A DNA stretch of 64,000 nucleotides, taken from assembly GCA_963840935.1 (NCBI GenBank), contig CAWJAS010000001.1:128875-192874 (forward strand). Reading direction: 5' to 3'. The DNA comes from Candidatus Magasanikiibacteriota bacterium (lineage in GTDB: Bacteria; Patescibacteriota; Patescibacteriia; Magasanikbacterales; GWA2-37-8). This document shows, one piece after another, positions 3,901 through 18,311 of the stretch. A program made the translations under genes and the position numbers. The stretch's first letter is position 1, and every line of letters begins with the position of its first letter. The notes beneath the pieces were generated by a model that worked only from the letters and a program-made list of their open reading frames with translations, ran no database searches and had not been told where the DNA came from.

Positions 3901-4834
3901 GGCCGGTTCGGATATCACTCAAGGTTTGCCTCGAGTTGAAGAATTATTTGAATGTCGCAATCCCAAACACCAGGCGACTCTTGCTGATGTTGAAGGCACG
4001 ATTGAAATCGAAGACGCTGACGGAAAAATTATTACTTCGCCTTCAGGCAAAAAAATATTTGAAGGACGCCGTGGCCAAAAAATAATCAAAATTCTTTTCG
4101 AAGGCATGGATGAAACAAAAATTAAATTTACGGCTGAAGACGAATTGCTGGTGAAAGATGGCGAGATGATTGATACCGATGCCGTAATTTTGGTGCGCGG
4201 TTCATCCGGCGATGAAATCAAAGCCAAATACCCGAGCCAGATTAAAGTTGGCAAAAATACCGTGACGCTGTCATATAATGGCCCAAAAGTTCGTGAATAT
4301 ATTATTCCACTCGGGTATAAGTTGTATGTCAAAAACGGCCAGAAAGTGGAAAAAGGCGAGCAACTCACGGATGGTTCGGTAAATTTGCATGAATTATTTG
4401 AATTAAGAGGAAGACCCGCCGTACAAAGATATATTTTGGAAGAAGTCCAGAATATTTATTCTTCGCAAGGTCAGAAAGTAAACGACAAACACATGGAATT
4501 GATTATCAGGCAAATGTTCAGTCGTGTTTATGTGGAGGATGCGGGTGATACTGATTTATTGCCGGGTGAAGTGGTTGAAAAAGCGCAGTTGGAATTTTCT
4601 AATCGGCAGACTTTGAAAGATGGCGGTAAAGAATCAGCCGGTCGGGAATTATTGCTTGGTATTTCGCGCGTTTCCCTCTCCACGCAAAGCTTTTTGTCGG
4701 CAGCGTCGTTTCAAGAAACCGCCCGCGTGCTTATTAACACGGCTATAACCGGCAAGATTGATTACCTGGAAGGATTAAAAGAAAATGTAATTATCGGTCG
4801 CTTAATTCCATCGGGTACGGGTTTTCGAGGGTAA
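965..4834 (+). CDS. rpoC: DNA-directed RNA polymerase subunit beta-prime
   Basis: 1289 aa. Zinc-finger CYCGKYKKIRYKGIVCDKCG near the N-terminus. Catalytic NADFDGDQMAVHLPLS motif. Sits immediately downstream of rpoB. Confidence 0.97.
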   Translation: MYRDTQKTLNFDAIRLKIASPEVIRGWSHGEVRKPETINYRTQKPEKGGLFAEEIFGPTKDWECYCGKYKKIRYKGIVCDKCGVEVTTSLVRRERMGHIELVTPVAHIWFLRSVPSKVGLVLDLSAQALEKVIYFASFIITNVDEVGKKQTFDLLKQEFKSKKKQIENEYNVAVKKANEDKAGAKAMDAIRDEYERKTKALEADFQAAEKELREINVLHIISENKYQELSLRYGHLFEAKIGAESVFELLSRVNLAETIKKLSEEQLTVKGAKLERIIRRKKLLKSLLMNDIRPEWMVMKCIPVIPPDLRPMVALDGGRFATSDLNDLYRRVINRNNRLARLVELNAPEVICRNEKRMLQEAVDALIDNNARHAKTVTASTGQKRQLRSLADILKGKQGRFRQNLLGKRVDYSGRSVIVIGPNLNIDECGLPKRMALELFKPFIMAQIIKRELAHNVRSAGRFIESEKDEVWDILEELTRTTRVLLNRAPTLHRLGIQAFHPRLVEGNAIQLHPLVCTAFNADFDGDQMAVHLPLSKEAKAEAENLMAAEKNILKPATGSPVITPNQDIVLGCFYLTRINENNEQKRKHFSNEKEAMFAYKNRIIGLQELIKVRFTDLTKFPSNEGELIETTIGRMIFNSVLPDKMAYYNEVVGKKKLSSIISLFLEFYGQEKTALFLDELKNLGFRYATKSGYSLGMDDFPKVVEKDAIIKEAENTIRLVEEQYQEGLLTQAERHAKIIEIWTETKDKVVAGNQFTLSKDSSVYAMIESGARGSWGQLGQVIGMKGLVASPSGDIMELPVKGNFKEGFNSLEYFISSHGTRKGLSDTALRTSGAGYLTRRLVDVCQDVVVLEEDCGDTIGEIFTATQSQEMGEQLADRIWGRYAMENIKVGNKILVKAGEIIDDKAAREIAANKIESVHVRSVLQCKLPKGVCQKCYGFDLSYNKPVSLGTAVGVIAAQSIGEPGTQLTLRTFHTGGVAGSDITQGLPRVEELFECRNPKHQATLADVEGTIEIEDADGKIITSPSGKKIFEGRRGQKIIKILFEGMDETKIKFTAEDELLVKDGEMIDTDAVILVRGSSGDEIKAKYPSQIKVGKNTVTLSYNGPKVREYIIPLGYKLYVKNGQKVEKGEQLTDGSVNLHELFELRGRPAVQRYILEEVQNIYSSQGQKVNDKHMELIIRQMFSRVYVEDAGDTDLLPGEVVEKAQLEFSNRQTLKDGGKESAGRELLLGISRVSLSTQSFLSAASFQETARVLINTAITGKIDYLEGLKENVIIGRLIPSGTGFRG

Positions 4835-9598: not shown

Positions 9599-10069
9599 TT
9601 ATATTTTTTCGGGTTTGGTAAGCACATATTTTTCTTTTTGGTAATCGTTTTCGTATCTTGCATTACTTACTTTTTGTATGCCGGGTATTTTTTTAACGGC
9701 TTTAAGTGAGGGTGTATTATCTAAATTGATTGTGAATATGACAGATGGCAAATTCAGGGTATCTATTATGGCGTGGGTACATTTAGCCGAGAGCCCTTGC
9801 CCTCTGTATTCCGGTCTGATGACATAGTGAATGATATTTTTATCATCCTCGGTATCATAGACGCCGACAATTCCAATTTTTTCCCCATCTTCTGCGCATG
9901 CCGTAAAATAGCGTTGATTCGTGCAGTTTTCTTGCCCGAGTGCTATCCAGCCGCCTTCTCCTTCCAGCGATTTGAAATAATCCATATCAAAGTCATCCAG
10001 CTTGATATTGTCGATTTTATTTGCTGTTTCTCGTCGTATTCCATGATTGTGCCTATGTGTTTCAGACAT
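9599..10069 (-). CDS. GNAT family N-acetyltransferase (cassette-borne)
   Basis: VIRPEYRGQGLSAKCTHAIIDTL acetyl-CoA binding-like segment. Confidence 0.6.
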   Translation of the reverse strand: MSETHRHNHGIRRETANKIDNIKLDDFDMDYFKSLEGEGGWIALGQENCTNQRYFTACAEDGEKIGIVGVYDTEDDKNIIHYVIRPEYRGQGLSAKCTHAIIDTLNLPSVIFTINLDNTPSLKAVKKIPGIQKVSNARYENDYQKEKYVLTKPEKI

Positions 10070-10152
10070 AGTCTTTATAAAAATAAATTATCAAAATTTT
10101 ATTACAAGTAAATTCTATATAATGTTGCCGAATGTTATGGAACGAGGTTGGA

Positions 10153-10401
10153 TTATCTGTCATTTATCCTTTTTTTATATTTAAGATATCTTACAGTACC
10201 ATAAATAAATAATACAATTCCAAAAAGTATTGAGACCAAAGCCAATATGATGGAATATATTGCGGGAACAAACTTGATTAGAAATGCTCCTAAAACTAAT
10301 AATGCGAGTGCGGTTCTCCAATATGCCAAAAGCGTTCTCTCATTTGCCAGATGAGTTCTGTCTTGTGCCAAATAATCCCTTCGCGTATATTGTTCTTTCA
10401 T
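10153..10401 (-). CDS. DUF202/YidH-family small membrane protein
   Basis: RDYLAQDRTHLANERTLLAYWRTALALLVLGAF is the DUF202 signature. Two TM segments. Confidence 0.6.
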   Translation of the reverse strand: MKEQYTRRDYLAQDRTHLANERTLLAYWRTALALLVLGAFLIKFVPAIYSIILALVSILFGIVLFIYGTVRYLKYKKRINDR

Positions 10402-10465
10402 GTTTTTACTTTTTATTTTGTTAGTTAAATAATAATCGTCTATTAAATCCGGGCAATATTATCCA

Positions 10466-10552
10466 CAATGGGCGCGCTTATCCAATCGTTTCGCCCGGGC
10501 ACGAACTTTATGCTCGGGCGGGATGTTGGATAATCGTTGTTCGGCGATGTCG
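10466..10552. repeat. attC-like imperfect palindromic cassette-boundary repeat, family member 1
   Basis: acaATGGGCGCGCTTATCCAATCGTTTCGCCCGGGCACGAACTTTATGCTCGGGCGGGATGTTGGATAATCGTTGTTCGGCGATGT. Shares ends and GC-rich inner hairpin with copies at 15284-15348, 15790-15880 and 11649-11762. Confidence 0.7.
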
Positions 10553-10762
10553 TCGAATGTATCTGTATATTCGAATTTTTTTGCTTCTCTTTCATATTAT
10601 ATCAATAAAGAGTAAAGAAGCAAAAAATTGGGTGGAGTAAGCGAATGTATTGTTCTTCAGGCGTTAGCCTGCCGGCGATTTAGCCAGCAAAAAAGTGCTT
10701 TTGGGGAATTGGGGAAGCCATATTTCTGGCTTCCCCGTGTTGTGAATTGGATCATAGATTTG

Positions 10763-10945
10763 TTACTCCTCCTTTTTTTTCTTTTGCTCTAATTCCGGAA
10801 TGAGCGAAACATTTGCGTTTATGCCACAGAAAGGGCAACCATCTTCGTTTGGAGAAAATGTACGTCCACAACAATGACACATATGGCTGTCTGGTGTGAT
10901 AGCTTCGGTCGCTATCATATTTAACAATTGTTTAATCGCATGCAT
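10763..10945 (-). CDS. Small zinc-ribbon protein
   Basis: CHCCGRTFSPNEDGCPFCG. The CCGTGTTGTGaattgg core motif (10735-10750) immediately precedes its stop, as for other cassette genes. Confidence 0.4.
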   Translation of the reverse strand: MHAIKQLLNMIATEAITPDSHMCHCCGRTFSPNEDGCPFCGINANVSLIPELEQKKKKEE

Positions 10946-11240
10946 ACCAATCCTCCTTTTTTGATTTCATGAATCCAATTCCCTAAAAGTATTTTTTTAA
11001 AGAGCAATGTTTTTGATAGTGTATCCCGGCATGCAAAGTTCGCTTTGTAGATTTATTGACTATTGTTTGGACACCCGAATACTATTTTAGCTGGTTTTCG
11101 TTAAAATTGACACTTAATTAAGAAAAGCGAGTTTAGGGAAAAGGCGAGCCGAGCCTTTTCCCGGATATTAGGCGTTATGCGAAGGTGGGCGCACCGTCCT
11201 CGTTGCGTTTTCTCTCATCTTATTTTTTGCGGTCGTGGAC

Positions 11241-11269
11241 TTGACAGAATAGCTGTTATCCACTATATT
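11241..11269 (+). promoter_or_regulatory. Near-consensus sigma70-type promoter: TTGACA, 17 bp spacer, TATATT
   Basis: ttgacagaatagctgttatccactatatt. Followed by RBS AAAGGAGG and ATG at 11368. Confidence 0.6.
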
Positions 11270-11367
11270 AAAATGTCAATAGTTGAGAAATCATCTTTAA
11301 ACAAAAAGAGTGATTTCTCGTTATCGCGAGGATCCGCTCTTTAACAAAACCCAAAGGAGGCGTAAAA

Positions 11368-11559
11368 ATGAAGTTCGATGAAGCAAAAATGTTGGCTTCA
11401 CAGTGTGTGAAAGCTGCCAAGGAAGCTTGGTATGCGAATTTCGAAAATACCTATCACTCAGGCGATCTCAATAGAGAGGCTGTTGGCAGAATTGCAAATA
11501 CGCTTCTCGAGCGTTGTCTGGGGTCAGAGGGTGTGGAGAGACCCTCCAAAACTGAATAA
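11368..11559 (+). CDS. Small hypothetical protein (63 aa) in a self-contained promoter-RBS-ORF-terminator unit, opposite to the array orientation
   Basis: Strong promoter. RBS aaaggagg 8 nt upstream. Terminator immediately downstream. Confidence 0.5.
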   Translation: MKFDEAKMLASQCVKAAKEAWYANFENTYHSGDLNREAVGRIANTLLERCLGSEGVERPSKTE

Positions 11560-11576
11560 GAGCATATTCGGTTCAA

Positions 11577-11612
11577 ACGCAAGGCGTTGGCTATACAGTC
11601 GACGCCTTTTTT
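11577..11612 (+). terminator. Rho-independent terminator
   Basis: AAGGCGTtggctatacagtcgACGCCTTTTTTTAT. Confidence 0.7.
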
Positions 11613-11648
11613 TATGAGCAAAAAATAATTTGAAAGAAAATGTAGCCG

Positions 11649-11762
11649 AATGGGCGCGCTTATCCAATGAGTGTCGAAATTTGGGCCGAAGACAATTGAC
11701 ACTCATTTGAAATATAAATGTGTCAATTTTCTCTGAGCCAGATATGCCGTGTTGTGCGATGT
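11649..11762. repeat. attC-like cassette-boundary repeat (variant with different inner hairpin AATGAGTGTC...GACACTCATT)
   Basis: Starts aATGGGCGCGCTTATCCAAT. Ends GATATGCCGTGTTGTGCGATGT directly before the stop of the 11769-12146 gene. Confidence 0.65.
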
Positions 11763-11768
11763 TTAATT

Positions 11769-12146
11769 TCAATTCCGTAACGCTGATAAAGCACTGTCTA
11801 GTTTTTCAATCAGGTCTTCTTTGTCTGTATATTCTATAAAATTTTTACATACTACTTTCAGAGAACCAGATATTTTTGAACCTTTACGATAAATGCAGAT
11901 AATTGGACGCCCAAAAGAATCAGCCCAACCCAACTCAATCCCCAATCCAGTAGCAGGAAATGAAACTTCCGCAACCATTACATCGCACTTTTTTATAATG
12001 TCTTTCGTGACGAAATCACTTGCTTCTTGATAAATTTCATGTGGCAATATTATCTCATTTTCAGAGTTGAGCTTACTTTCTCTGATAGGTAAATATAATT
12101 CTTCCTTATAATTCAATTCTTTTGAGTGTCCAATGTATATTTTCAT
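11769..12146 (-). CDS. Nucleoside 2-deoxyribosyltransferase-like (flavodoxin-like fold) protein
   Basis: MKIYIGHSKELNY... N-terminus and size typical of the Nuc_deoxyri_tr2-like family. Weak. Loosely similar to the 15349-15762 product. Confidence 0.4.
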   Translation of the reverse strand: MKIYIGHSKELNYKEELYLPIRESKLNSENEIILPHEIYQEASDFVTKDIIKKCDVMVAEVSFPATGLGIELGWADSFGRPIICIYRKGSKISGSLKVVCKNFIEYTDKEDLIEKLDSALSALRN

Positions 12147-12164
12147 AAATAGTAATTAAAATTA

Positions 12165-12252
12165 AATTTCGTACAACGTATCGGCATATCTGATGTTGCG
12201 TAATAATATTGGCGAAACGTAGTGTAGCTAGATATACGCTGTTATCGGATAT
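12165..12252. repeat. attC-like cassette-boundary repeat
   Basis: aatttCGTACAACGtatcggcatatctgatgttgcg...GATATACGCTGTTATCGGATAT. Ends ~12 bp before the stop of the 12269-12760 gene. Confidence 0.55.
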
Positions 12253-12268
12253 AATCAAAATTTGATAC

Positions 12269-12760
12269 TCATTTGGGGCTAATTTTATTCAAAACCATTT
12301 TTAATGTAACAGGTCGATACCTGTTTTCTGGATATTTTTTTAATCTCTTTTTTACAAAGCCGCAAGACTCATATGCTTTAATAGCACGAATATTTTCAGG
12401 TCTGACTTCTAAATATGATTTTGAATACCCAAGCTTGCCAAATCCTAATGATAAGACCTTTTTGATTGCTTTCGTGCCAATTCCCTTATTCCAATACTCT
12501 TTTTCACCAATGACTATTGTAATTTCAAACGTATTTGAATCTTTATGCATTAATGCGAGATGGCCTATTGCTTTTTCATCATATTGAATAATGTAATGAT
12601 GATCTTTTTTGCTCTCAAACATTTTGAAAAAATATCCAGGGAGTTTTTCATCGAATTCATCAAAATTACCGCTGGTTAGAGCAATTAAATCATGATCTTT
12701 CCACCACTTGAGAAAGAGAGGAAGGTCTGTTTTTTTGATTTTTCTGAGCTTAATAGACAT
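12269..12760 (-). CDS. GNAT family N-acetyltransferase
   Basis: EKEYWNKGIGTKAIKKVLSLGF...AYESCGF. Confidence 0.8.
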   Translation of the reverse strand: MSIKLRKIKKTDLPLFLKWWKDHDLIALTSGNFDEFDEKLPGYFFKMFESKKDHHYIIQYDEKAIGHLALMHKDSNTFEITIVIGEKEYWNKGIGTKAIKKVLSLGFGKLGYSKSYLEVRPENIRAIKAYESCGFVKKRLKKYPENRYRPVTLKMVLNKISPK

Positions 12761-12812
12761 TTGTTAGTATAAAATTAGCCCCAATTACTTTAAATTAAAT
12801 TTTGATTATTTC

Positions 12813-12835
12813 CGATAAACGCTGTTAGGCGATGT
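12813..12835. repeat. Cassette-boundary core motif containing a perfect integron core-site heptamer GTTAGGC
   Basis: cgataaaCGCTGTTAGGCGATGT, 12 bp before the stop of the 12847-13341 gene. Confidence 0.55.
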
Positions 12836-12846
12836 AATAAAAAATA

Positions 12847-13341
12847 TTAGAAATCTGTTTCGCTTGGATCTATTGGTGCTGAAACAATCTTTGCCCTTTC
12901 TTGTTCAGTGATAAAGCTGCCTTCTTTGGGGACAATAGTCGCAAAGGGAGCGATGTGAACATCATCTGTTCCATTATCCAATCTCCAAAAACCGTACACT
13001 ACCCTGTGGCCAGGGTCTGTCACAGCCGCGTGTGCAATTTCATGTTCCATTAATTTATCAATGATATTTTTTTTACCACCAGCATCGATGAGGAATTTCC
13101 TCATCTCTTCAGCGGTATCAAATTCGTAGCAATCATCCTCATTCAGAATCGTTTCATATTTTTTTCGCAGTTCCTCACTTCTACCAGCTATTTCTTTTTT
13201 ATCTTTTATTCCAGCTTGGATAATTTCGCGCGTAATCGAAGTACGTTCACGAAGCCATCTTTTATAGTCATCAAGTTTTGTTTTTGGTTTTTTCATTTGT
13301 CTTGTTTCAGCATCCGTTTGTTCGATATGTGAGTGCTCCAT
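12847..13341 (-). CDS. Hypothetical protein with HExxH motif (MEHEIAHAAV), putative zinc metallopeptidase-like
   Basis: HEIAH motif. No other family assignment. Confidence 0.45.
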   Translation of the reverse strand: MEHSHIEQTDAETRQMKKPKTKLDDYKRWLRERTSITREIIQAGIKDKKEIAGRSEELRKKYETILNEDDCYEFDTAEEMRKFLIDAGGKKNIIDKLMEHEIAHAAVTDPGHRVVYGFWRLDNGTDDVHIAPFATIVPKEGSFITEQERAKIVSAPIDPSETDF

Positions 13342-13639
13342 ATAATTATTGAGGTTATTTTTTATTATGTCGCCGAATGTGTCCGAGTGTGCGAAGTTGG
13401 CTTTTCGGATTTATTGATTACTATTTTAGCTGGTTTTCGCTTAAATTACCACCAAACAAAGAAAGGCGAATTTGGGAAAAAGTTGAGCCGAGCAATTTTC
13501 CTTTTATCCCTTGTTATATGACCCGAACGGAATGAAATGGAGTGAGAGCGCATCGTGGCGCGACTGGAAGGAGCGAATTTTGCCAAACAAATAATTACCT
13601 TATTATTAGAGCTCTTTTGAAATTTTTCGGTGGGTGGGT

Positions 13640-13668
13640 TTGACATTTTTAACTGGATGTGATTTAAT
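13640..13668 (+). promoter_or_regulatory. Sigma70-type promoter: TTGACA, 17 bp spacer, TTTAAT
   Basis: ttgacatttttaactggatgtgatttaat. RBS caggagaaagcc before ATG at 13717. Confidence 0.5.
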
Positions 13669-13716
13669 TTACTATTCCGGCTCTGGTAGTTAGCCGGATA
13701 AACACAGGAGAAAGCC

Positions 13717-14094
13717 ATGCTTTACGCAATTGTTCTAGGGGCAGCGTCAGTGTCGGTAATTGTTGTTCTTTCATTTTTCTGCAACAAAATAGTGGAACGG
13801 CTAGAGTTAGGCCTGTCTTTATTCTACCATCCCTCGTGGATGATGCTGCGTCCATTAAATACACCTAGAAAAGTAATGATTTTTTTCTTTCGGTGGTTGC
13901 CAACGGCGCTATATTTAGTCGCGATAGTATTGTATGGTATCTTCAACCCATCAGAGGGGCTTGGAGACAAATTAATCCTTATCGGCGTTTTTTTTGCGTC
14001 GCAGGTGTTGGTTTCGTGTATTCTGTTGAGGGCTCATACGCACATTCTGGTCAAGAAGTACAGTAAATTAATTTCAAGTAGGTGCAAGCAGTAA
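13717..14094 (+). CDS. Hypothetical 4-TM membrane protein in a second self-contained reverse-oriented unit
   Basis: Hydrophobic segments. Own promoter and terminator. Confidence 0.5.
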   Translation: MLYAIVLGAASVSVIVVLSFFCNKIVERLELGLSLFYHPSWMMLRPLNTPRKVMIFFFRWLPTALYLVAIVLYGIFNPSEGLGDKLILIGVFFASQVLVSCILLRAHTHILVKKYSKLISSRCKQ

Positions 14095-14111
14095 AAGAGC
14101 CAAGGTTCCAT

Positions 14112-14145
14112 GCCCGCATAGATTAACATCTGCGGGCTTTTTTTA
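14112..14145 (+). terminator. Rho-independent terminator
   Basis: GCCCGCatagattaacatctGCGGGCTTTTTTT. Confidence 0.75.
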
Positions 14146-14414
14146 AAAAATTTTAAAAAAGAGCTTAATTCAAATTGTCAAAATTATTTGTTTGGCAAAA
14201 TTGCGAATAACAGTCAGGAATATCCGATGTTTTTGCGACCAACGGAAGCAAAAATATGGGTGAGATAATTTTTTATTCCTTATTATAATTTATATTGAAA
14301 AATTATTGAACCAGATATTCCTTGTTATCTGATGTAAATTTTTATCTTCGTCTTTGATGAACTTAATCTTGTTTTCGCACTAAAAATTTTTGTTTTGCCG
14401 AATGGCAAAACAGA

Positions 14415-15191
14415 TTATTTGGGGGTATTTATTATTTTTTTTAATTGTTCAATGTGTAATTCTTTTATTTCTTCAAATTCTTGTGAGGTATTTTTACCAT
14501 CCTTCATGATTGAAAATGTTTCAAGTAATATCGTACCGTCATATCCAATTGAATTCAGCTTGGAAATAATTCCATCGACTTTGGCTTGATTATCATAGAA
14601 TAAATGATCAAAATCTCCAATATTATCATGAAGATGAATATGTCCAATTTTGCCGCTAAAAATATCAATAAACTTATTCAACTCAGAGATTCTGTTGGCG
14701 TGTCCAATATCAAGGGTGATATTTGCATTAGGAATTTTTTCCAATAATTTCAAAATATTGTCGGCGGAATTATATGGCGCGCTTGAAACATTTTCAATCA
14801 ATAACTGCATGTTATTTTTTTGCAAAACAATATTTATTTCATTAAAGATTTCAGCATTTTCCTCTGTGTTCAAATTTTGATGCGGGTGAATCGTAATTTT
14901 TTTTGCACCCAAATCTCTCAATATCTCGATATTTTTTACGATTTCATCAAATTTAACAATATCCCAATGAATATGTCCTAAAACTTCAAAGTTTGTAGTC
15001 GCATTTTTTAAGTCGAAAAAAATATCATCGATGGTTTTTAGCACTTCTGGCTGAATAGTGATTTCCGTAAAATCAAAATATTGTTTTGCAAATTCAATTT
15101 CTGTGAGTAGGTCTCCTCTAAAACCCGACATATATCCAAATTTCATATTTTCGTTATTAAAAAAATAAAAAATATCTCTAAATAATTCCAC
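14415..15191 (-). CDS. Sugar phosphate isomerase/epimerase, xylose isomerase-like TIM barrel (AP endonuclease 2 fold)
   Basis: ITIHPHQN, DIGHANRISE, GHIHLHDN, metal-ligand pattern of the family. Confidence 0.75.
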   Translation of the reverse strand: MELFRDIFYFFNNENMKFGYMSGFRGDLLTEIEFAKQYFDFTEITIQPEVLKTIDDIFFDLKNATTNFEVLGHIHWDIVKFDEIVKNIEILRDLGAKKITIHPHQNLNTEENAEIFNEINIVLQKNNMQLLIENVSSAPYNSADNILKLLEKIPNANITLDIGHANRISELNKFIDIFSGKIGHIHLHDNIGDFDHLFYDNQAKVDGIISKLNSIGYDGTILLETFSIMKDGKNTSQEFEEIKELHIEQLKKIINTPK

Positions 15192-15283
15192 CTTTGACGG
15201 AAAACTTATAAAAAAACAAATTTTCGTCCTCGTTCAACGCACCAGAGCCTGAAATTATTACAAAGATAAAAATTTATTTCACA

Positions 15284-15348
15284 TAATGGGTCGCGGTTAT
15301 CCCATCGTCCCGCCCGGGCACGAACCTCATATTCGGTGTTGTACGATG
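15284..15348. repeat. attC-like cassette-boundary repeat, deletion variant lacking the right inner arm
   Basis: cataATGGGTCGCGGTTATCCCATCGTCCCGCCCGGGCACGAACCTCATATTCGG|TGTTGTACGATGT. Ends at the stop of the 15349-15762 gene. Confidence 0.7.
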
Positions 15349-15762
15349 TTAAATAATTTTTTTCAAATCACCATTAATAATAATCGGCTTAACTGCCTCA
15401 ATTTCAGTTTTACAATAAGGCATTTCGGGAATTGGGTTTAGCATGAAAACCTTTTGATTTAACACGTAGGCAAAACCGATTTCCATTAAAGTATTGCCGC
15501 CTACATAATTTTGGACGCCATTTTTATCAAGATTCAAAACAAGCACGGCATCTGCTCCTTGCATCATACGCCAAAATTCACGGATGGCGTCCATATTGTA
15601 TTTTTGGTGAAGTTTGATTTCTTCAATTTCGGAATCGGTTTTGCCCACCATTGCCTTATGCAAATCCGTGACAAATGCGTCATGCCCCAATTCCCGAAGT
15701 TTTTCACGATACTCAAGCATTTTATCGGTAAATTGCATTGAGCCGATTATTCCTATTTTCAT
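15349..15762 (-). CDS. Nucleoside 2-deoxyribosyltransferase-like protein
   Basis: MKIGIIGSMQFTDKMLEYREKLRELGHDAF...LVLNLD. Flavodoxin-like pattern. Confidence 0.45.
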   Translation of the reverse strand: MKIGIIGSMQFTDKMLEYREKLRELGHDAFVTDLHKAMVGKTDSEIEEIKLHQKYNMDAIREFWRMMQGADAVLVLNLDKNGVQNYVGGNTLMEIGFAYVLNQKVFMLNPIPEMPYCKTEIEAVKPIIINGDLKKII

Positions 15763-15789
15763 AAAAGATTTGAAAAAAATTATTTAATT

Positions 15790-15955
15790 TCGTACAATGG
15801 GTCGCGGTTATCCCATCGTCCCGCCCGGGCACGAACCTCATGTTCGGGCGGGATGTGGGATAACCGCTGTTATGCGATGTCGCGCGAGCAACTCGCAGAA
15901 CAGCGGGCACCGCGACCCATTATGCAAAATCGCTCACGCGATTTTGCATAATGTT
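15790..15955. repeat. Full-length attC-like palindrome plus additional nested hairpins; gene-less cassette-like segment
   Basis: cgtacaATGGGTCGCGGTTATCCCATCGTCCCGCCCGGGCACGAACCTCATGTTCGGGCGGGATGTGGGATAACCGCTGTTATGCGATGT. Then GCGCGAGcaaCTCGC, an inverted copy CCGCGACCCATT, and a perfect hairpin ATGCAAAATCGCtcacGCGATTTTGCAT. Confidence 0.7.
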
Positions 15956-16315
15956 TTTGGACATGCGAAGTTAAAAAACCCCGCCACCTTGACTTAATTG
16001 TATCAAAAAGAGCGGGGTTTTTCAATTTGGGAGGGGGCTTTCGAGGAAAGCCCGAACCGCATGTCCAGTGTTATGTGATTTATACTTTTCCTTTTATCCG
16101 TTAGGGTCGCTTTTCTATTTTAGGGCAAATTTGGTTTTGTCTTTCTTTGAGCTGAGAGGTTGGAGCGGATGCCCAAAAGTAAAGACGCATTATTGGAAGT
16201 TAGTAAGAAAAACGTCCGAAATTGAAGAAGGGGTCGCAACATCTGTTGCGACCCCTTTGGGGTTTTGCTGGCCTCCCGAGTTTCCTCAGCTTGCCAGACG
16301 GCGTAGCCGATCTCG

Positions 16316-16753
16316 TCACTCCACGACGGTCGTTTGACCGCGGCCAAACTTGCCATGGTTCCAGCCCGCACCGTTGATGTCAGTCACGGAGTGAACGTGT
16401 ATGGAGAGCAATTGGTCGAAGGCTTGGTCTGTATCGGGGTTCCCCGTGCGGTACTCGATCCACATGGGCTGGCCGACCGGCACATCATGAAAGGTCTCTG
16501 GAATATTGCCGTAACACCCTTGTCCGAAGGAATACTGAGCGACAGTGCCATCCGGCTTCTCCATGAGAAAGGTGTAACGCGACGGTTCGTGCATCAGGAC
16601 GCGAGAAACACCATCCATGCGCTTGGTCTCGGTCCAATCTATTGCACCAAGGGTCCGGTAGACGAAGGCCATGAGACCTAAGGACACAACCAGGAGAATG
16701 GAGACGGACAGGATGATCAAAGGAACATGAAACTTTTCCCTAATACGCTTCAT
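16316..16753 (-). CDS. Hypothetical N-terminally membrane-anchored protein; visibly GC-rich relative to flanks
   Basis: N-terminal TM segment. Codons are G/C-ending. Two consecutive hairpins downstream at ~16228-16262. Confidence 0.5.
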   Translation of the reverse strand: MKRIREKFHVPLIILSVSILLVVSLGLMAFVYRTLGAIDWTETKRMDGVSRVLMHEPSRYTFLMEKPDGTVAQYSFGQGCYGNIPETFHDVPVGQPMWIEYRTGNPDTDQAFDQLLSIHVHSVTDINGAGWNHGKFGRGQTTVVE

Positions 16754-16989
16754 TGTAATTTCCTCCGTGTGTGGTGAGGTCGCTTTATCGTGTAAAGCGA
16801 CACATAATTATATCACAAAAAAACGACCCTGTCAAGAGTCGCGCATCAAAAATCTTCTTAATTTAGCCAAAATTTAGAAAATCGTCCCGCCGAGAATACG
16901 GCGGGTTACCATATTCTCCCCTCTATAAAAAATGAAAAATCAAATTTGCCCAATATAGAAAAGCGAAAGGGCATTCGGCCCTTAAAAGG

Positions 16990-17101
16990 AAAAGTGTATT
17001 TCACATAACGTTTCGGGATATCCGACGTTTCGCCACTTCCATTAAAAAATAATTTAGTGTGGCGAAATGTGGCTTTAGCCCTTGCGGATATCCCGTGTTG
17101 T
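16990..17101. repeat. attC-like imperfect palindrome with perfect CGGATATCCG palindromic boxes
   Basis: cacataACGTTTCGGGATATCCGACGTTTCGCCAC...GTGGCGAAATG...GCGGATATCCCGTGTTGTGCGAC. Ends ~30 bp before the stop of the 17133-17690 gene. Confidence 0.7.
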
Positions 17102-17132
17102 GCGACCCGAAGGGCTTGAGTTGCAAAAACTT

Positions 17133-17690
17133 TTATTCCTTATTTTTGTTTTGATTTCTATTAAAAATAGCCATGGATAAAAAGTCATAAAACTTTCCTT
17201 TGTAAAAAACTTCATCTTTCATCTTGCCTTCGATAACAAAGCCTAAAGATTTATACAAGTTAACTGCTGGAGTATTATCTTTGATGACGCCTAAATTAAT
17301 CTTATGAAGTTTTTGTTTTGTAAATCCATAATCGATTATCCATTCCATGGCAATTTTTCCAATTCCCTTACCGCGATAGTCGTCTTCTCCAATAGCAATA
17401 AACAAATCTGCATTTTTATTCGGTTTACTAATGTTTGATAGTCCTATAAATCCTATTGGCTTAGAATTATCACAAATAGTGAAAAACTTTTTGTTTTTAG
17501 CTTTTTTATAATTAGCAAACCATTCCTTTTCTTTTTGCAGATTTGTTTTTTGCCCCAATTCATCACCAATAAACTTATTGACATTGGGATTGCTCAACCA
17601 CTTGACGCGGCAAGGGATATCTTTTTCTAAATGTTTTCTTATTTTTATCATAAAGAAATCAAAACAAATTAAATTTAAAAGTTTTTGCAA
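17133..17690 (-). CDS. GNAT family N-acetyltransferase (RimJ/RimL-like); first cassette next to the recombinase remnant
   Basis: KVKWLSNPNV, DYRGKGIGKIAMEWIIDYGF, LYKSLGF. Confidence 0.75.
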   Translation of the reverse strand: MQKLLNLICFDFFMIKIRKHLEKDIPCRVKWLSNPNVNKFIGDELGQKTNLQKEKEWFANYKKAKNKKFFTICDNSKPIGFIGLSNISKPNKNADLFIAIGEDDYRGKGIGKIAMEWIIDYGFTKQKLHKINLGVIKDNTPAVNLYKSLGFVIEGKMKDEVFYKGKFYDFLSMAIFNRNQNKNKE

Positions 17691-17877
17691 TTTCGCACAA
17701 CTACCTTTATCATGACTAGTGGTAAAAACCGCTAAAATATGATAAAATTTTTGAGAAATTGGGGTTATAGGCGACGAAGGTGAGAGAAAAGCAAATTGAT
17801 TTGCTTTTCCGAGCCAAGGAGCTTATATACTGTGTATATAGCCCCTGGGGGTATAACGGATTAATATTATCAAGAAT

Positions 17878-18311
17878 TATGAAGGAGGGCAACACTTTTG
17901 ATAATTTGGCTAGGGAATTGCGTATTCGCAATTACAGCAAAAAAACCGCTAATTCATATATTCGGTATAATCAGGAGTTTTTGCGGTTTTGCGAAAAAGA
18001 CCCGCGTGAAGCAACGGCCGAGGATATAAAGAATTATTTGGATTATTTAGCTCAAGAATGGTCGTGGAAGCAGATTAACCGAATCAACTATACAAAAAAT
18101 CGTGGTTTCAACAGCCAAAAAAGCGGGGATTGCCAAAAATGTGACACCGCATACCTTGCGCCATTCGTTTGCCACGCATTTGCTAGAAAATGGCACGGAT
18201 ATACGGTATATTCAAGAATTGTTGGGGCATGCCAAGCTTCAGACCACCCAAATCTACACTCATGTGGCAAATAATAATTTAAAAAATATTGTGAGCCCGC
18301 TCGATGTATGA
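17878..18311 (+). pseudogene. intI-like: Integron-integrase-like tyrosine recombinase remnant: N-terminal SAM-like domain fused out of frame to the C-terminal catalytic tail; ~180 codons of the central domain are missing
   Basis: N-terminal part [61 protein letters not shown] parallels IntI1 [30 protein letters not shown]...EVEAFLSWLANE. After a frame change near 18050, [61 protein letters not shown]...VSPLDV matches the IntI/Xer C-terminus, including the HxxR and catalytic Tyr regions and the SPLD ending. Confidence 0.7.

Follow-up and report, generated by a model that had tools for sequence, protein, structure and literature searches.

How do two neighbouring copies of one palindromic element come to differ by an entire arm? 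The question is raised by a cassette array in a 64,000-nt stretch of DNA from a Candidatus Magasanikiibacteriota bacterium (contig CAWJAS010000001.1, positions 128,875 to 192,874 of the forward strand), below called the window, whose own numbering is used throughout. A first-pass annotation had described the copies at 15284-15348 and 15790-15880 as sisters, one of which had lost its right arm by a precise deletion at a conserved TGTT core, taken as the footprint of an integron-type crossover. The kinship of the two copies is confirmed here, and so is their nature as recombination sites (attC) of an integron-type cassette array. However, the short copy is probably a hybrid attC, in which the R''-L'' half of a widespread canonical attC family is joined to the loop, the 3' arm and the R' of a hairpin-type attC. 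The attractive crossover-footprint reading is thus replaced by that of a chimeric, presumably dead attC that would stem from short-homology recombination.

Structure of the two sister copies

The full copy is an attC of the hairpin type, H1 for short, located at 15792-15880 on the minus strand and recognised by its sequence, its fold and its compensatory base pairs. Along the plus strand it consists of R' (GTACAAT, 15792-15798), a GGGTC spacer (15799-15803), a 27-bp imperfect hairpin (15804-15867) and an inner R'' (GTTATGC on this strand, 15869-15875). As single-stranded DNA the hairpin folds with -30.8 kcal/mol on the plus strand and -30.2 kcal/mol on the minus strand (z-scores -5.7 and -6.3), and none of 200 shuffled sequences folds as well, i.e., the copy is a complete hairpin, as annotated.

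The short copy (15281-15349, minus strand) was assigned from its sequence, its fold and its matches to the canonical motif described below. On the plus strand it starts with R' (ACATAAT, 15281-15287), followed by a hairpin-type part from 15288 to about 15330, whose last ten positions are the tract CGAACCTCAT (15321-15330). The site is completed by an L'' box at 15325-15336 that includes A15331, by T15337, by R'' (GTTGTAC on the plus strand, 15338-15344) and by a conserved GATGT (15345-15349). Positions 15286-15336 correspond to positions 15797-15847 of the full copy; of these 51 nt, all agree but one, A15331, whose counterpart is G15842. The left halves are thus shared, but not identical as had been stated, and the mismatch is diagnostic. 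After the matching 51 nt the short copy runs directly into TGTTGTACGATGT, and the supposed junction reads CTCATATTCGG-T-GTTGTAC-GATGT. The segment without a counterpart is the 3' arm of the hairpin, GCGGGATGTGGGATAACCGC at 15848-15867, which measures 20 nt rather than 21. Single-strand folding, proposed earlier as a check, separates the two copies: the full copy folds significantly, while the short copy folds no better than its shuffles (z-scores +0.75 and +0.46).

The core of the family, CGCCCGGGCACGAAC...AT..TCGG, occurs three times in the window, compared with 0.00 expected, and all copies are located at 10.4-15.9 kb, inside the cassette array. Two further relatives had been named. The one at 10463-10550 (minus strand) is a true full relative, a diverged H1-type attC with 84% identity to the full H1 copy over 83 nt and with compensatory changes; at the left end, subfamilies of the element differ by a 1-nt indel. 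The other, at 11645-11762, matches over its first 20 nt only and then continues as another attC type.

Polarity of the cassette array

The array spans 9599-17701 on the minus strand and is made up of small open reading frames (ORFs) with attC-like sites between them. Nearly all ORFs of this region, ~9.6-17.7 kb, have minus-strand orientation; among their products are three GNAT acetyltransferases, two nucleoside-deoxyribosyltransferase-like proteins, one TIM-barrel isomerase and others. The imperfect palindromes between them are bounded by ...RYRYAA(C/T) and GTTRYRY. The region is a decaying integron-like cassette array whose top strand is the minus strand of the window.

Three lines of evidence give this strand. 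Firstly, an attI-like region (17695-17775, minus strand), which reads ...ATGATAAAGGTA-G|TTGTGC, sits between the start of a divergent integrase gene (17879) and the first cassette, and the cassettes lead away from it as in an integron platform. The same sequence is conserved beside the arrays of three other loci (L001, L004 and L029). Secondly, the cassette of ORF 15349-15762 starts with A|TTGTAC in the window, with G|TTGTGC in L005 and with A|TTGTAC in L006, and the sequence to the left of this start is unrelated in all three. Thirdly, a 250-nt ORF-less cassette in the metagenome-assembled genome (MAG) CAZEEW, present in five copies of which four were compared in full, spans TTGCAG to ...CCC(G/A).

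In integrons, the cassette boundary is the G|TT of R', and the remainder of R' comes from the next cassette. The boundaries here read R|TTRYRY on the minus strand, and the R' hexamers at the cassette starts agree with the R'' of the cassettes themselves. The 3' end of 26 complete canonical attCs reads ...CTTCTCATATTCGG-ATAC-G|TTRYRY-GAAAT. The motif TGTT(R)YRC, at which the crossover had been placed, is therefore the inverse core R'' of the upstream cassette, and the crossover site R' is at the opposite, AATGGG, end. The crossover point falls between 15286 and 15287 in the short copy and between 15797 and 15798 in the full copy. A crossover at TGTT would make the plus strand the top strand of the cassettes, which is ruled out by the position of attI and integrase, the mapping of the cassette start and the boundaries of the repeated unit.

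The junction is the regular end of a canonical attC family

Public metagenome contigs were scanned with the pattern ACATCG-NNN-AACA-N{0,20}-CCRAAYATGAGG, which would catch the full form, with a gap of 20, as well as the short form, with gap 0. The scan gave 108 matches. Of these, 94 have gap 0 and correspond to 78 distinct sites, while the gapped matches are GC-rich coding sequence unrelated to attCs. The distinct gap-0 sites read CCGAATATGAGG in 75 of 78 cases and CCAAATATGAGG in the other three, with T at the Y position in all 78. Where enough flanking sequence exists, they belong to attCs of ~148 nt ending in CTTCTCATATTCGG-ATAC-GTTRYRY.

In the consensus fold of 24 bottom strands (RNAalifold), an R box of 7 bp and an invariant L box of 11 bp are accompanied by a one-sided bulge of 3 nt and by two inner hairpins; six pairs show compensatory changes, among 24 sequences that are very alike. 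Each of the 24 ends in CCTCATATTCGG-T-GTTnnnC-GATGT on the bottom strand. Like H1, this canonical family has the R''/R' and L''/L' inverted repeats, the bottom-strand hairpin and the variable terminal structure of an attC. However, extrahelical bases on the R''-L'' arm and a two-sided central spacer are absent: the L stem is continuous in 24/24, and the sole interruption of the stem is the 3-nt bulge on the R'-L' arm. Rfam holds no attC family, and the matches in the window are chance hits below threshold (the mir-8515 match scores 30.8 bits, with 100 needed); an identity as a known structured RNA was rejected.

What looked like a breakpoint is thus the invariant L''-T-R'' end of the canonical family, found in 24/24 aligned sites and 94 metagenome matches. 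This bears directly on the proposal that a full H1 hairpin attC formerly belonged to the ORF cassette and lost the arm beside the TGTT core in a precise 20-nt deletion. Compared pairwise, the sisters do differ by one 20-nt gap and one substitution, and palindromes are known to be prone to deletion. However, there is no direct repeat at the edges of the gap, and such a deletion would have to hit by chance, with single-base accuracy, the R''-A-L'' spacing that marks another, widespread and unrelated family. An additional substitution to the canonical allele would also be required. Further, in the locus L005, the ORF is joined to a canonical end without any H1 sequence. We therefore consider a deletion within a full hairpin very unlikely.

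Probable hybrid origin of the short copy

Read on the top strand, the short copy consists of two pieces. The first, TAA-CATC-GTACAAC-A-CCGAATATGAGG, is the canonical R''-A-L''; the second, TTCGTGCCCGGGCGGGACGATGGGATAACCGCGACCC-A|TTATGT, is the loop, 3' arm and R' of H1 and is identical to the neighbouring full copy. The join must fall within a tract that is common to both attC types, ATGAGGTTCG on the top strand and CGAACCTCAT on the plus strand. This tract, ATGAGGTTC(G), is identical over 10 nt, or extends to 16 nt with one mismatch; after GAGG, the canonical sites go on like H1, with TTC in 32/60 and TTCG in 8/60 distinct sites, so that 9-16 nt are shared. The base A15331 is the allele of the canonical family. 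The other base is found in the full copy of the window and in six H1 copies of two other MAGs, five in the CAZEEW MAG and one in L004. The diverged copy at 10463-10550 also has G at this position, but its tract differs elsewhere.

The origin of each piece can be traced separately. The nearest copy of the ORF 15349-15762 cassette, in L005, has 95% amino acid identity, the same 5' untranslated region and the same R|TTGTRC start. It ends in TAACATCGCATAAC-A-CCAAATATGAGG and then continues into non-H1 sequence; the canonical R''-L'' end is therefore native to this ORF. At none of the positions that vary among the H1 copies of other genomes does the H1-derived part depart from the neighbouring full copy, and thus the hybrid descends from a full H1 of the window lineage, not the reverse.

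The reverse polarity, with a hybrid-like site as the ancestor and the full hairpin made from it by fold-back (snap-back) synthesis of the complementary 20-nt arm, has one attraction: every H1 copy is a canonical L''-T-R'' end with a 20-nt insert that is nearly the reverse complement of the upstream arm. Fold-back synthesis may well explain the first origin of the H1 family. As the history of these two copies it is highly improbable. Full H1 sites of 84-95% identity, with their insert at the same boundaries, are present in two other MAGs and at 10463-10550, and the hybrid agrees with its neighbour wherever a site is lineage-specific, so that it nests among the full copies.

We suggest that a short-homology deletion, as the simplest route, most likely gave rise to the hybrid, with ATGAGGTTCG as the direct repeat: one copy in the canonical attC of the ORF, the other in a second attC of the H1 type located further along the array. 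Through replication slippage or illegitimate recombination, possibly aided by the strong hairpin, this deletion would have taken out the L'-R' half of the canonical site and the 5' arm of the second H1 copy, along with whatever lay between them. H1 copies recur in arrays: the CAZEEW MAG has five and the window several. Hairpins of -30 to -65 kcal/mol are plausible obstacles to replication. The product combines the R'' and L'' of one site with the R' of another, leaving L'' without a complementary L' and the site unable to fold. Indeed, the L'' at 15281-15349 is CCGAATATGAGG while the L' side is of the H1 type, and no canonical L' (the partner of CCTCATATTCGG) is found anywhere in the 64-kb window. 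Lacking this partner, the hybrid should be inert for the integrase, fusing the ORF cassette to the next cassette.

Several points weigh against this origin. The arrangement that it requires as ancestor, a complete canonical attC behind the ORF or a second downstream H1 copy, was not observed, and the common tract is as short as stated above. This cassette form has one other example, L005, a contig of 1.7 kb that stops short of the full attC. The loss of function is predicted from folding alone. Finally, the common tract contains GTTCG, which resembles the core variant GTTCGGC of the array and leaves some small probability to an integrase event at a secondary site.

In such an event, the integrase would have cut at G|TTCG in the H1 loop and in the canonical attC and joined the two. 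The interval of the junction, ATGAGG|TTCG, holds GTTCG, the array uses GTTCGGC as a bona fide core (10539-10545), and events of this kind are known for IntI. However, GTTCG is outside the R-box/L-box duplex in both parents, being part of the hairpin loop in H1, and boundaries elsewhere are strictly R|TTRYRY. Moreover, the integrase of the window is itself a pseudogene. Recombination at secondary core-like sites is therefore an unlikely source of the hybrid.

Another possibility is that the hybrid is a mis-join of the metagenome assembly at a repeated attC sequence. The window is probably from a MAG, the two copies have 45-51 identical nt in common, and attC repeats are known to disturb assemblies (PMC9024848). 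However, a mis-join within a 45-nt repeat would merely swap the flanks, and the junction between H1 and the canonical L'' falls in a 10-nt tract, below the usual assembly k-mers. The cassette-specific inverted repeats are also intact and consistent on both sides. An artefact is barely credible here.

The hybrid at 15281-15349 has a parallel within the array. A second hybrid attC is located at 11645-11762 (minus strand), whose first 20 nt on the plus strand are identical to 10467-10486 of the 10463-10550 copy. The remainder is a canonical-like attC that ends short inside the inner hairpin; its L box is a different one, CCAGATATGCCG, and is the complement of the L'' in the attC across ORF 11769-12146. 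In the metagenomes, 16 of 66 canonical 5' ends have no matching L' within 230 nt, and several of these sites (L024, L026, L071, L098, L105, L106 and others) bear the L' of another family after the conserved inner region ...CAAAAACTTC. This suggests frequent attC-attC recombination inside the conserved terminal structure. Hybrids are thus common in the canonical family, with 16/66 sites lacking L' and two hybrids in the window, and this matters for the counting and classification of attC sites in MAGs. The short copy is an ordinary sign of decay in an array with an already broken integrase.

A Y-shaped element and an ORF-less cassette

A larger, Y-shaped (three-way) element, recognised by its fold at 15796-15921, includes the full copy as one arm. 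The first-pass annotation had seen neither this, nor the diagnostic mismatch, nor that the junction is a standard motif. The base stem is formed by AATGGGTCGCGGT (15796-15808) with ACCGCGACCCATT (15909-15921), the first arm is the H1 hairpin and the second is CCGCTGTT...AACAGCGG. The 126-nt element folds with -65.2 kcal/mol (z -11.7, about -12 on both strands). The copy at 10463-10550 is a short form, without the second arm or the base stem.

Next to the Y element is a perfect 32-nt palindrome, TTATGCAAAATCGC-TCAC-GCGATTTTGCATAA (15920-15951). It is the body of an ORF-less cassette of 154 nt, which extends from 15951 back to 15798 and has the Y element as its attC. The cassette is ~95% conserved in a Candidatus Magasanikbacteria MAG (L004, ~4084-4250), where it is the first cassette at attI, and the 250-nt cassette with five copies in the CAZEEW MAG (L001-L003) is a relative. 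A promoter, a terminator, a small RNA and a selfish empty cassette are all candidate roles. An alternative identity as a miniature inverted-repeat transposable element or an IS200/IS605-like element, with AATGGGTCGCGG/CCGCGACCCATT as terminal inverted repeats, was rejected, as there is no target duplication and the ends are cassette boundaries.

Among five distinct copies of the H1 hairpin, three pairs show compensatory changes. On the plus strand 96% of the alignment cells are paired, counting three invariant G-T pairs, which would turn into A-C mismatches on the other strand. With five sequences, this fits, if weakly, with the plus strand as the folding bottom strand.

The ORF cassette and cassette-specific inverted repeats

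The cassette whose attC is the hybrid encodes a 137-aa protein (15349-15762, minus strand) with a weak match to the Pfam family Nuc_deoxyrib_tr (nucleoside 2-deoxyribosyltransferase-like), and its ends read TTGTRC...GATTTGAAAAAAATTATTTAACATCG. The protein has 1923 homologues, the best 120 of which are 80-95% identical and come from MAGs labelled Patescibacteria, Pacearchaeota, Woesearchaeota and Marinimicrobia. For a gene found now as a cassette, now in ordinary operons, this is a very high degree of conservation. Most of the close homologues are in ordinary gene neighbourhoods and are uninformative on the attC. No exact match to the ORF was found in the assembly index.

The cassette is flanked by an inverted repeat of its own. 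The left arm (15339-15369, 31 nt) is 94% complementary to the right arm (15767-15797), where the cassette starts with TTGTACGAAAT... on the minus strand. Private inverted repeats of 20-35 nt, continuing outward from R'/R'', flank seven cassettes in the window; the other pairs are 16070-16096/16983-17009, 14325-14351/15260-15286, 12242-12266/12794-12818, 11751-11774/12154-12177, 12825-12846/13356-13377 and 13576-13596/14182-14202. They are also present in L029 and most of the loci L017-L120, and in most of 66 metagenomic cassettes, 12 of which reach at least 28/35 matches, compared with none of the shuffled controls. The repeat has a conserved 2-nt mismatch, GAAAT at the start versus GATGT at the end (TTRYRYGAAAT... 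versus ...ACATCGYRYAA), and can overlap the last codons of the ORF. In a circular cassette, it would add a long stem below the R box. Modules of the pdif/Xer type do not account for these repeats, which are specific to each cassette and contain no common 28-bp site.

The integrase and its intact relatives

The tyrosine recombinase gene beside attI (17879-18311, plus strand) is a pseudogene in two fragments that lie in different frames. It keeps a SAM-like N-terminal domain of ~65 aa and a C-terminal catalytic end of ~65 aa, while ~140 aa of the middle are missing. The last 65 residues score 107 bits on the XerD model and likewise on the integron-integrase model. An intact relative in L029 (258-1082; 274 aa) is 66-80% identical to the fragments, and we compared this protein and ten others, found beside the same attI or attC types, with known recombinases.

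The intact relatives have 269-295 aa. On the XerA-type model NF040815 (cut-off 220) they reach 207-240 bits, and on the integron-integrase model TIGR02249 (cut-off 265) 183-235, with the latter match broken near model position 180; the integron-integrase score is higher than their scores on the XerC and XerD models. Against VchIntIA (PDB 2a3v), the alignment jumps over residues 179-245, for which the query has 25 residues only. XerA (PDB 5hxy), in contrast, aligns continuously from end to end (164 bits). The skipped region is that of the IntI-specific domain, described as necessary for integron recombination (PMC9668308, PMC8138268) and used as a criterion for integrons (PMC9668308, citing Messier and Roy 2001; PMC8138268). 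This additional domain around patch III is absent from the intact relatives, and the pseudogene of the window is also without the region. Judged by these alignments, the array-head recombinases are XerA-like and lack the IntI-specific domain.

Nevertheless, in 12/12 metagenome loci (L019, L022, L028, L029, L036, L047, L055, L061, L066, L091, L093 and L113) the integrase is divergent from the cassettes and adjoins attI and the array. Directly upstream of its start is a conserved palindromic motif, read as TATAGCCCCTGGGGGTATAAC in the window (17835-17862), GGTTATATCCCTCTGGGGTATAAC in L001 and TTATACCCCCCAAAGGTATAAC in L029, which is a candidate operator or promoter element.

Relation to known systems

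The array works like an integron but is not one by the usual definition, as it lacks the IntI-specific domain and the extrahelical bases, two features that are thought to interact in classical integrons. Within the array, the short ORFs are in tandem and mostly co-oriented. The imperfect palindromes between them have an inverse core ...AAC on the 5' side and a core GTT... on the 3' side, and the cassette boundary is at G|TT. An attI lies beside a divergent tyrosine recombinase gene, the large sites are branched at the terminus like the Vibrio cholerae repeats (VCRs), and the bottom strand folds better, with G-T pairs on the plus strand of the window. All of this is as in class 1, Vibrio chromosomal and archaeal integrons (PMC2727003, PMC4889954, PMC9668308). 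In classical attCs, the R''-L'' arm carries extrahelical bases and the unpaired central spacer is two-sided (PMC2727003), whereas the canonical attC described here has a continuous 11-bp L stem, no extrahelical bases and a 3-nt bulge on the R'-L' arm. Apart from this and the recombinase, differences are found in the core consensus, GTTRYRY followed by GAAAT/GATGT, in the specific 20-35-nt inverted repeat that extends the R box, and in R', which is often ATT in H1-type sites.

Two processes in integrons resemble the formation of the hybrid. In mobile integrons, fused cassettes with a truncated attC (59-base element, 59-be) occur. In sedentary chromosomal integrons, homologous recombination between similar attC sites, such as VCRs, rearranges or deletes cassettes independently of the integrase crossover. 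The hybrid would likewise stem from recombination away from the crossover point that rearranges or deletes cassettes. However, its homology is only 10-16 nt and lies between different attC families. The inactivated integrase, the broken attCs and the loss of half an attC, which locks a cassette to its neighbour, are shared with degraded integrons and with clusters of attC sites lacking an integron integrase, CALINs (PMC4889954, PMC9024848). Unlike in CALINs and fused cassettes, the broken site is a chimera of two attC families at a short tract and not a simple truncation.

Continuous alignment with archaeal XerA (PDB 5hxy) and scores that reach beyond the XerA-type cut-off of NF040815 link the intact relatives to Xer and to the 'Cand' and Xer-like simple tyrosine recombinases (PMC8138268). 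The resolution of chromosome dimers by Xer uses one conserved 28-bp dif site, built of two 11-bp arms, without a cargo array. The recombinases described here, by contrast, head attI and cassette arrays with many different hairpin sites, and there is no dif-like 28-bp site.

From the combination of a XerA-like integrase, attCs with a one-sided bulge and no extrahelical bases, private repeats and regular hybrids, it can tentatively be speculated that the system is a living intermediate between Xer and classical integrons, although we hold this to be somewhat less probable than its negation. The attCs of such an intermediate would use a 12-bp R arm with the conserved 2-nt mismatch, the hybrids, about a quarter of the canonical metagenome sites, would be a regular by-product of attC-attC recombination, and the H1 family may have been born from a hybrid by fold-back synthesis. 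With both the IntI-specific domain and the extrahelical bases absent, and with long stems specific to each cassette, the system provides a testable model of how a plain Xer-like enzyme could carry out, or could have begun, integron recombination.

The array moves cassettes between bacteria of the candidate phyla radiation (CPR) and DPANN archaea, one cassette protein being 80-95% identical across both. No dedicated description of integrons or attC sites in Patescibacteria, Parcubacteria or CPR was found in the literature searched, which does not prove that none exists. The array type looks little described, and the integron-like system around the two copies deserves a dedicated study.

Further features of the array

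Two plus-strand ORFs, 13717-14094 and 11368-11559, run against the direction of the array and are located inside cassette-like units. The region 10550-11650 contains extra attC-like ends (10738 GTGTTGTGA and 11174 GTTATGC) and a repeat in common with 13378-13501; it probably holds several degraded cassettes.

The cassette at 16077-17002 has a G+C content of 45-51%, compared with 31-39% in its neighbours, and its flanks are nested inverted repeats of 27 and 32 nt. The 145-aa ORF that it contains (16316-16753) has no Pfam match. This cassette was probably acquired recently from a foreign source.

In two places, cassettes abut without a hairpin: at 12811-12830 in the window, where the sequence is CCGATAA-ACGCT-GTTAGGC, and in L006, just upstream of gene 2411, where it is ACATCGCATACAA-GCAAAC-ATTGTAC. 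These are minimal R''-spacer-R' junctions and possibly attCs with the whole interior deleted.

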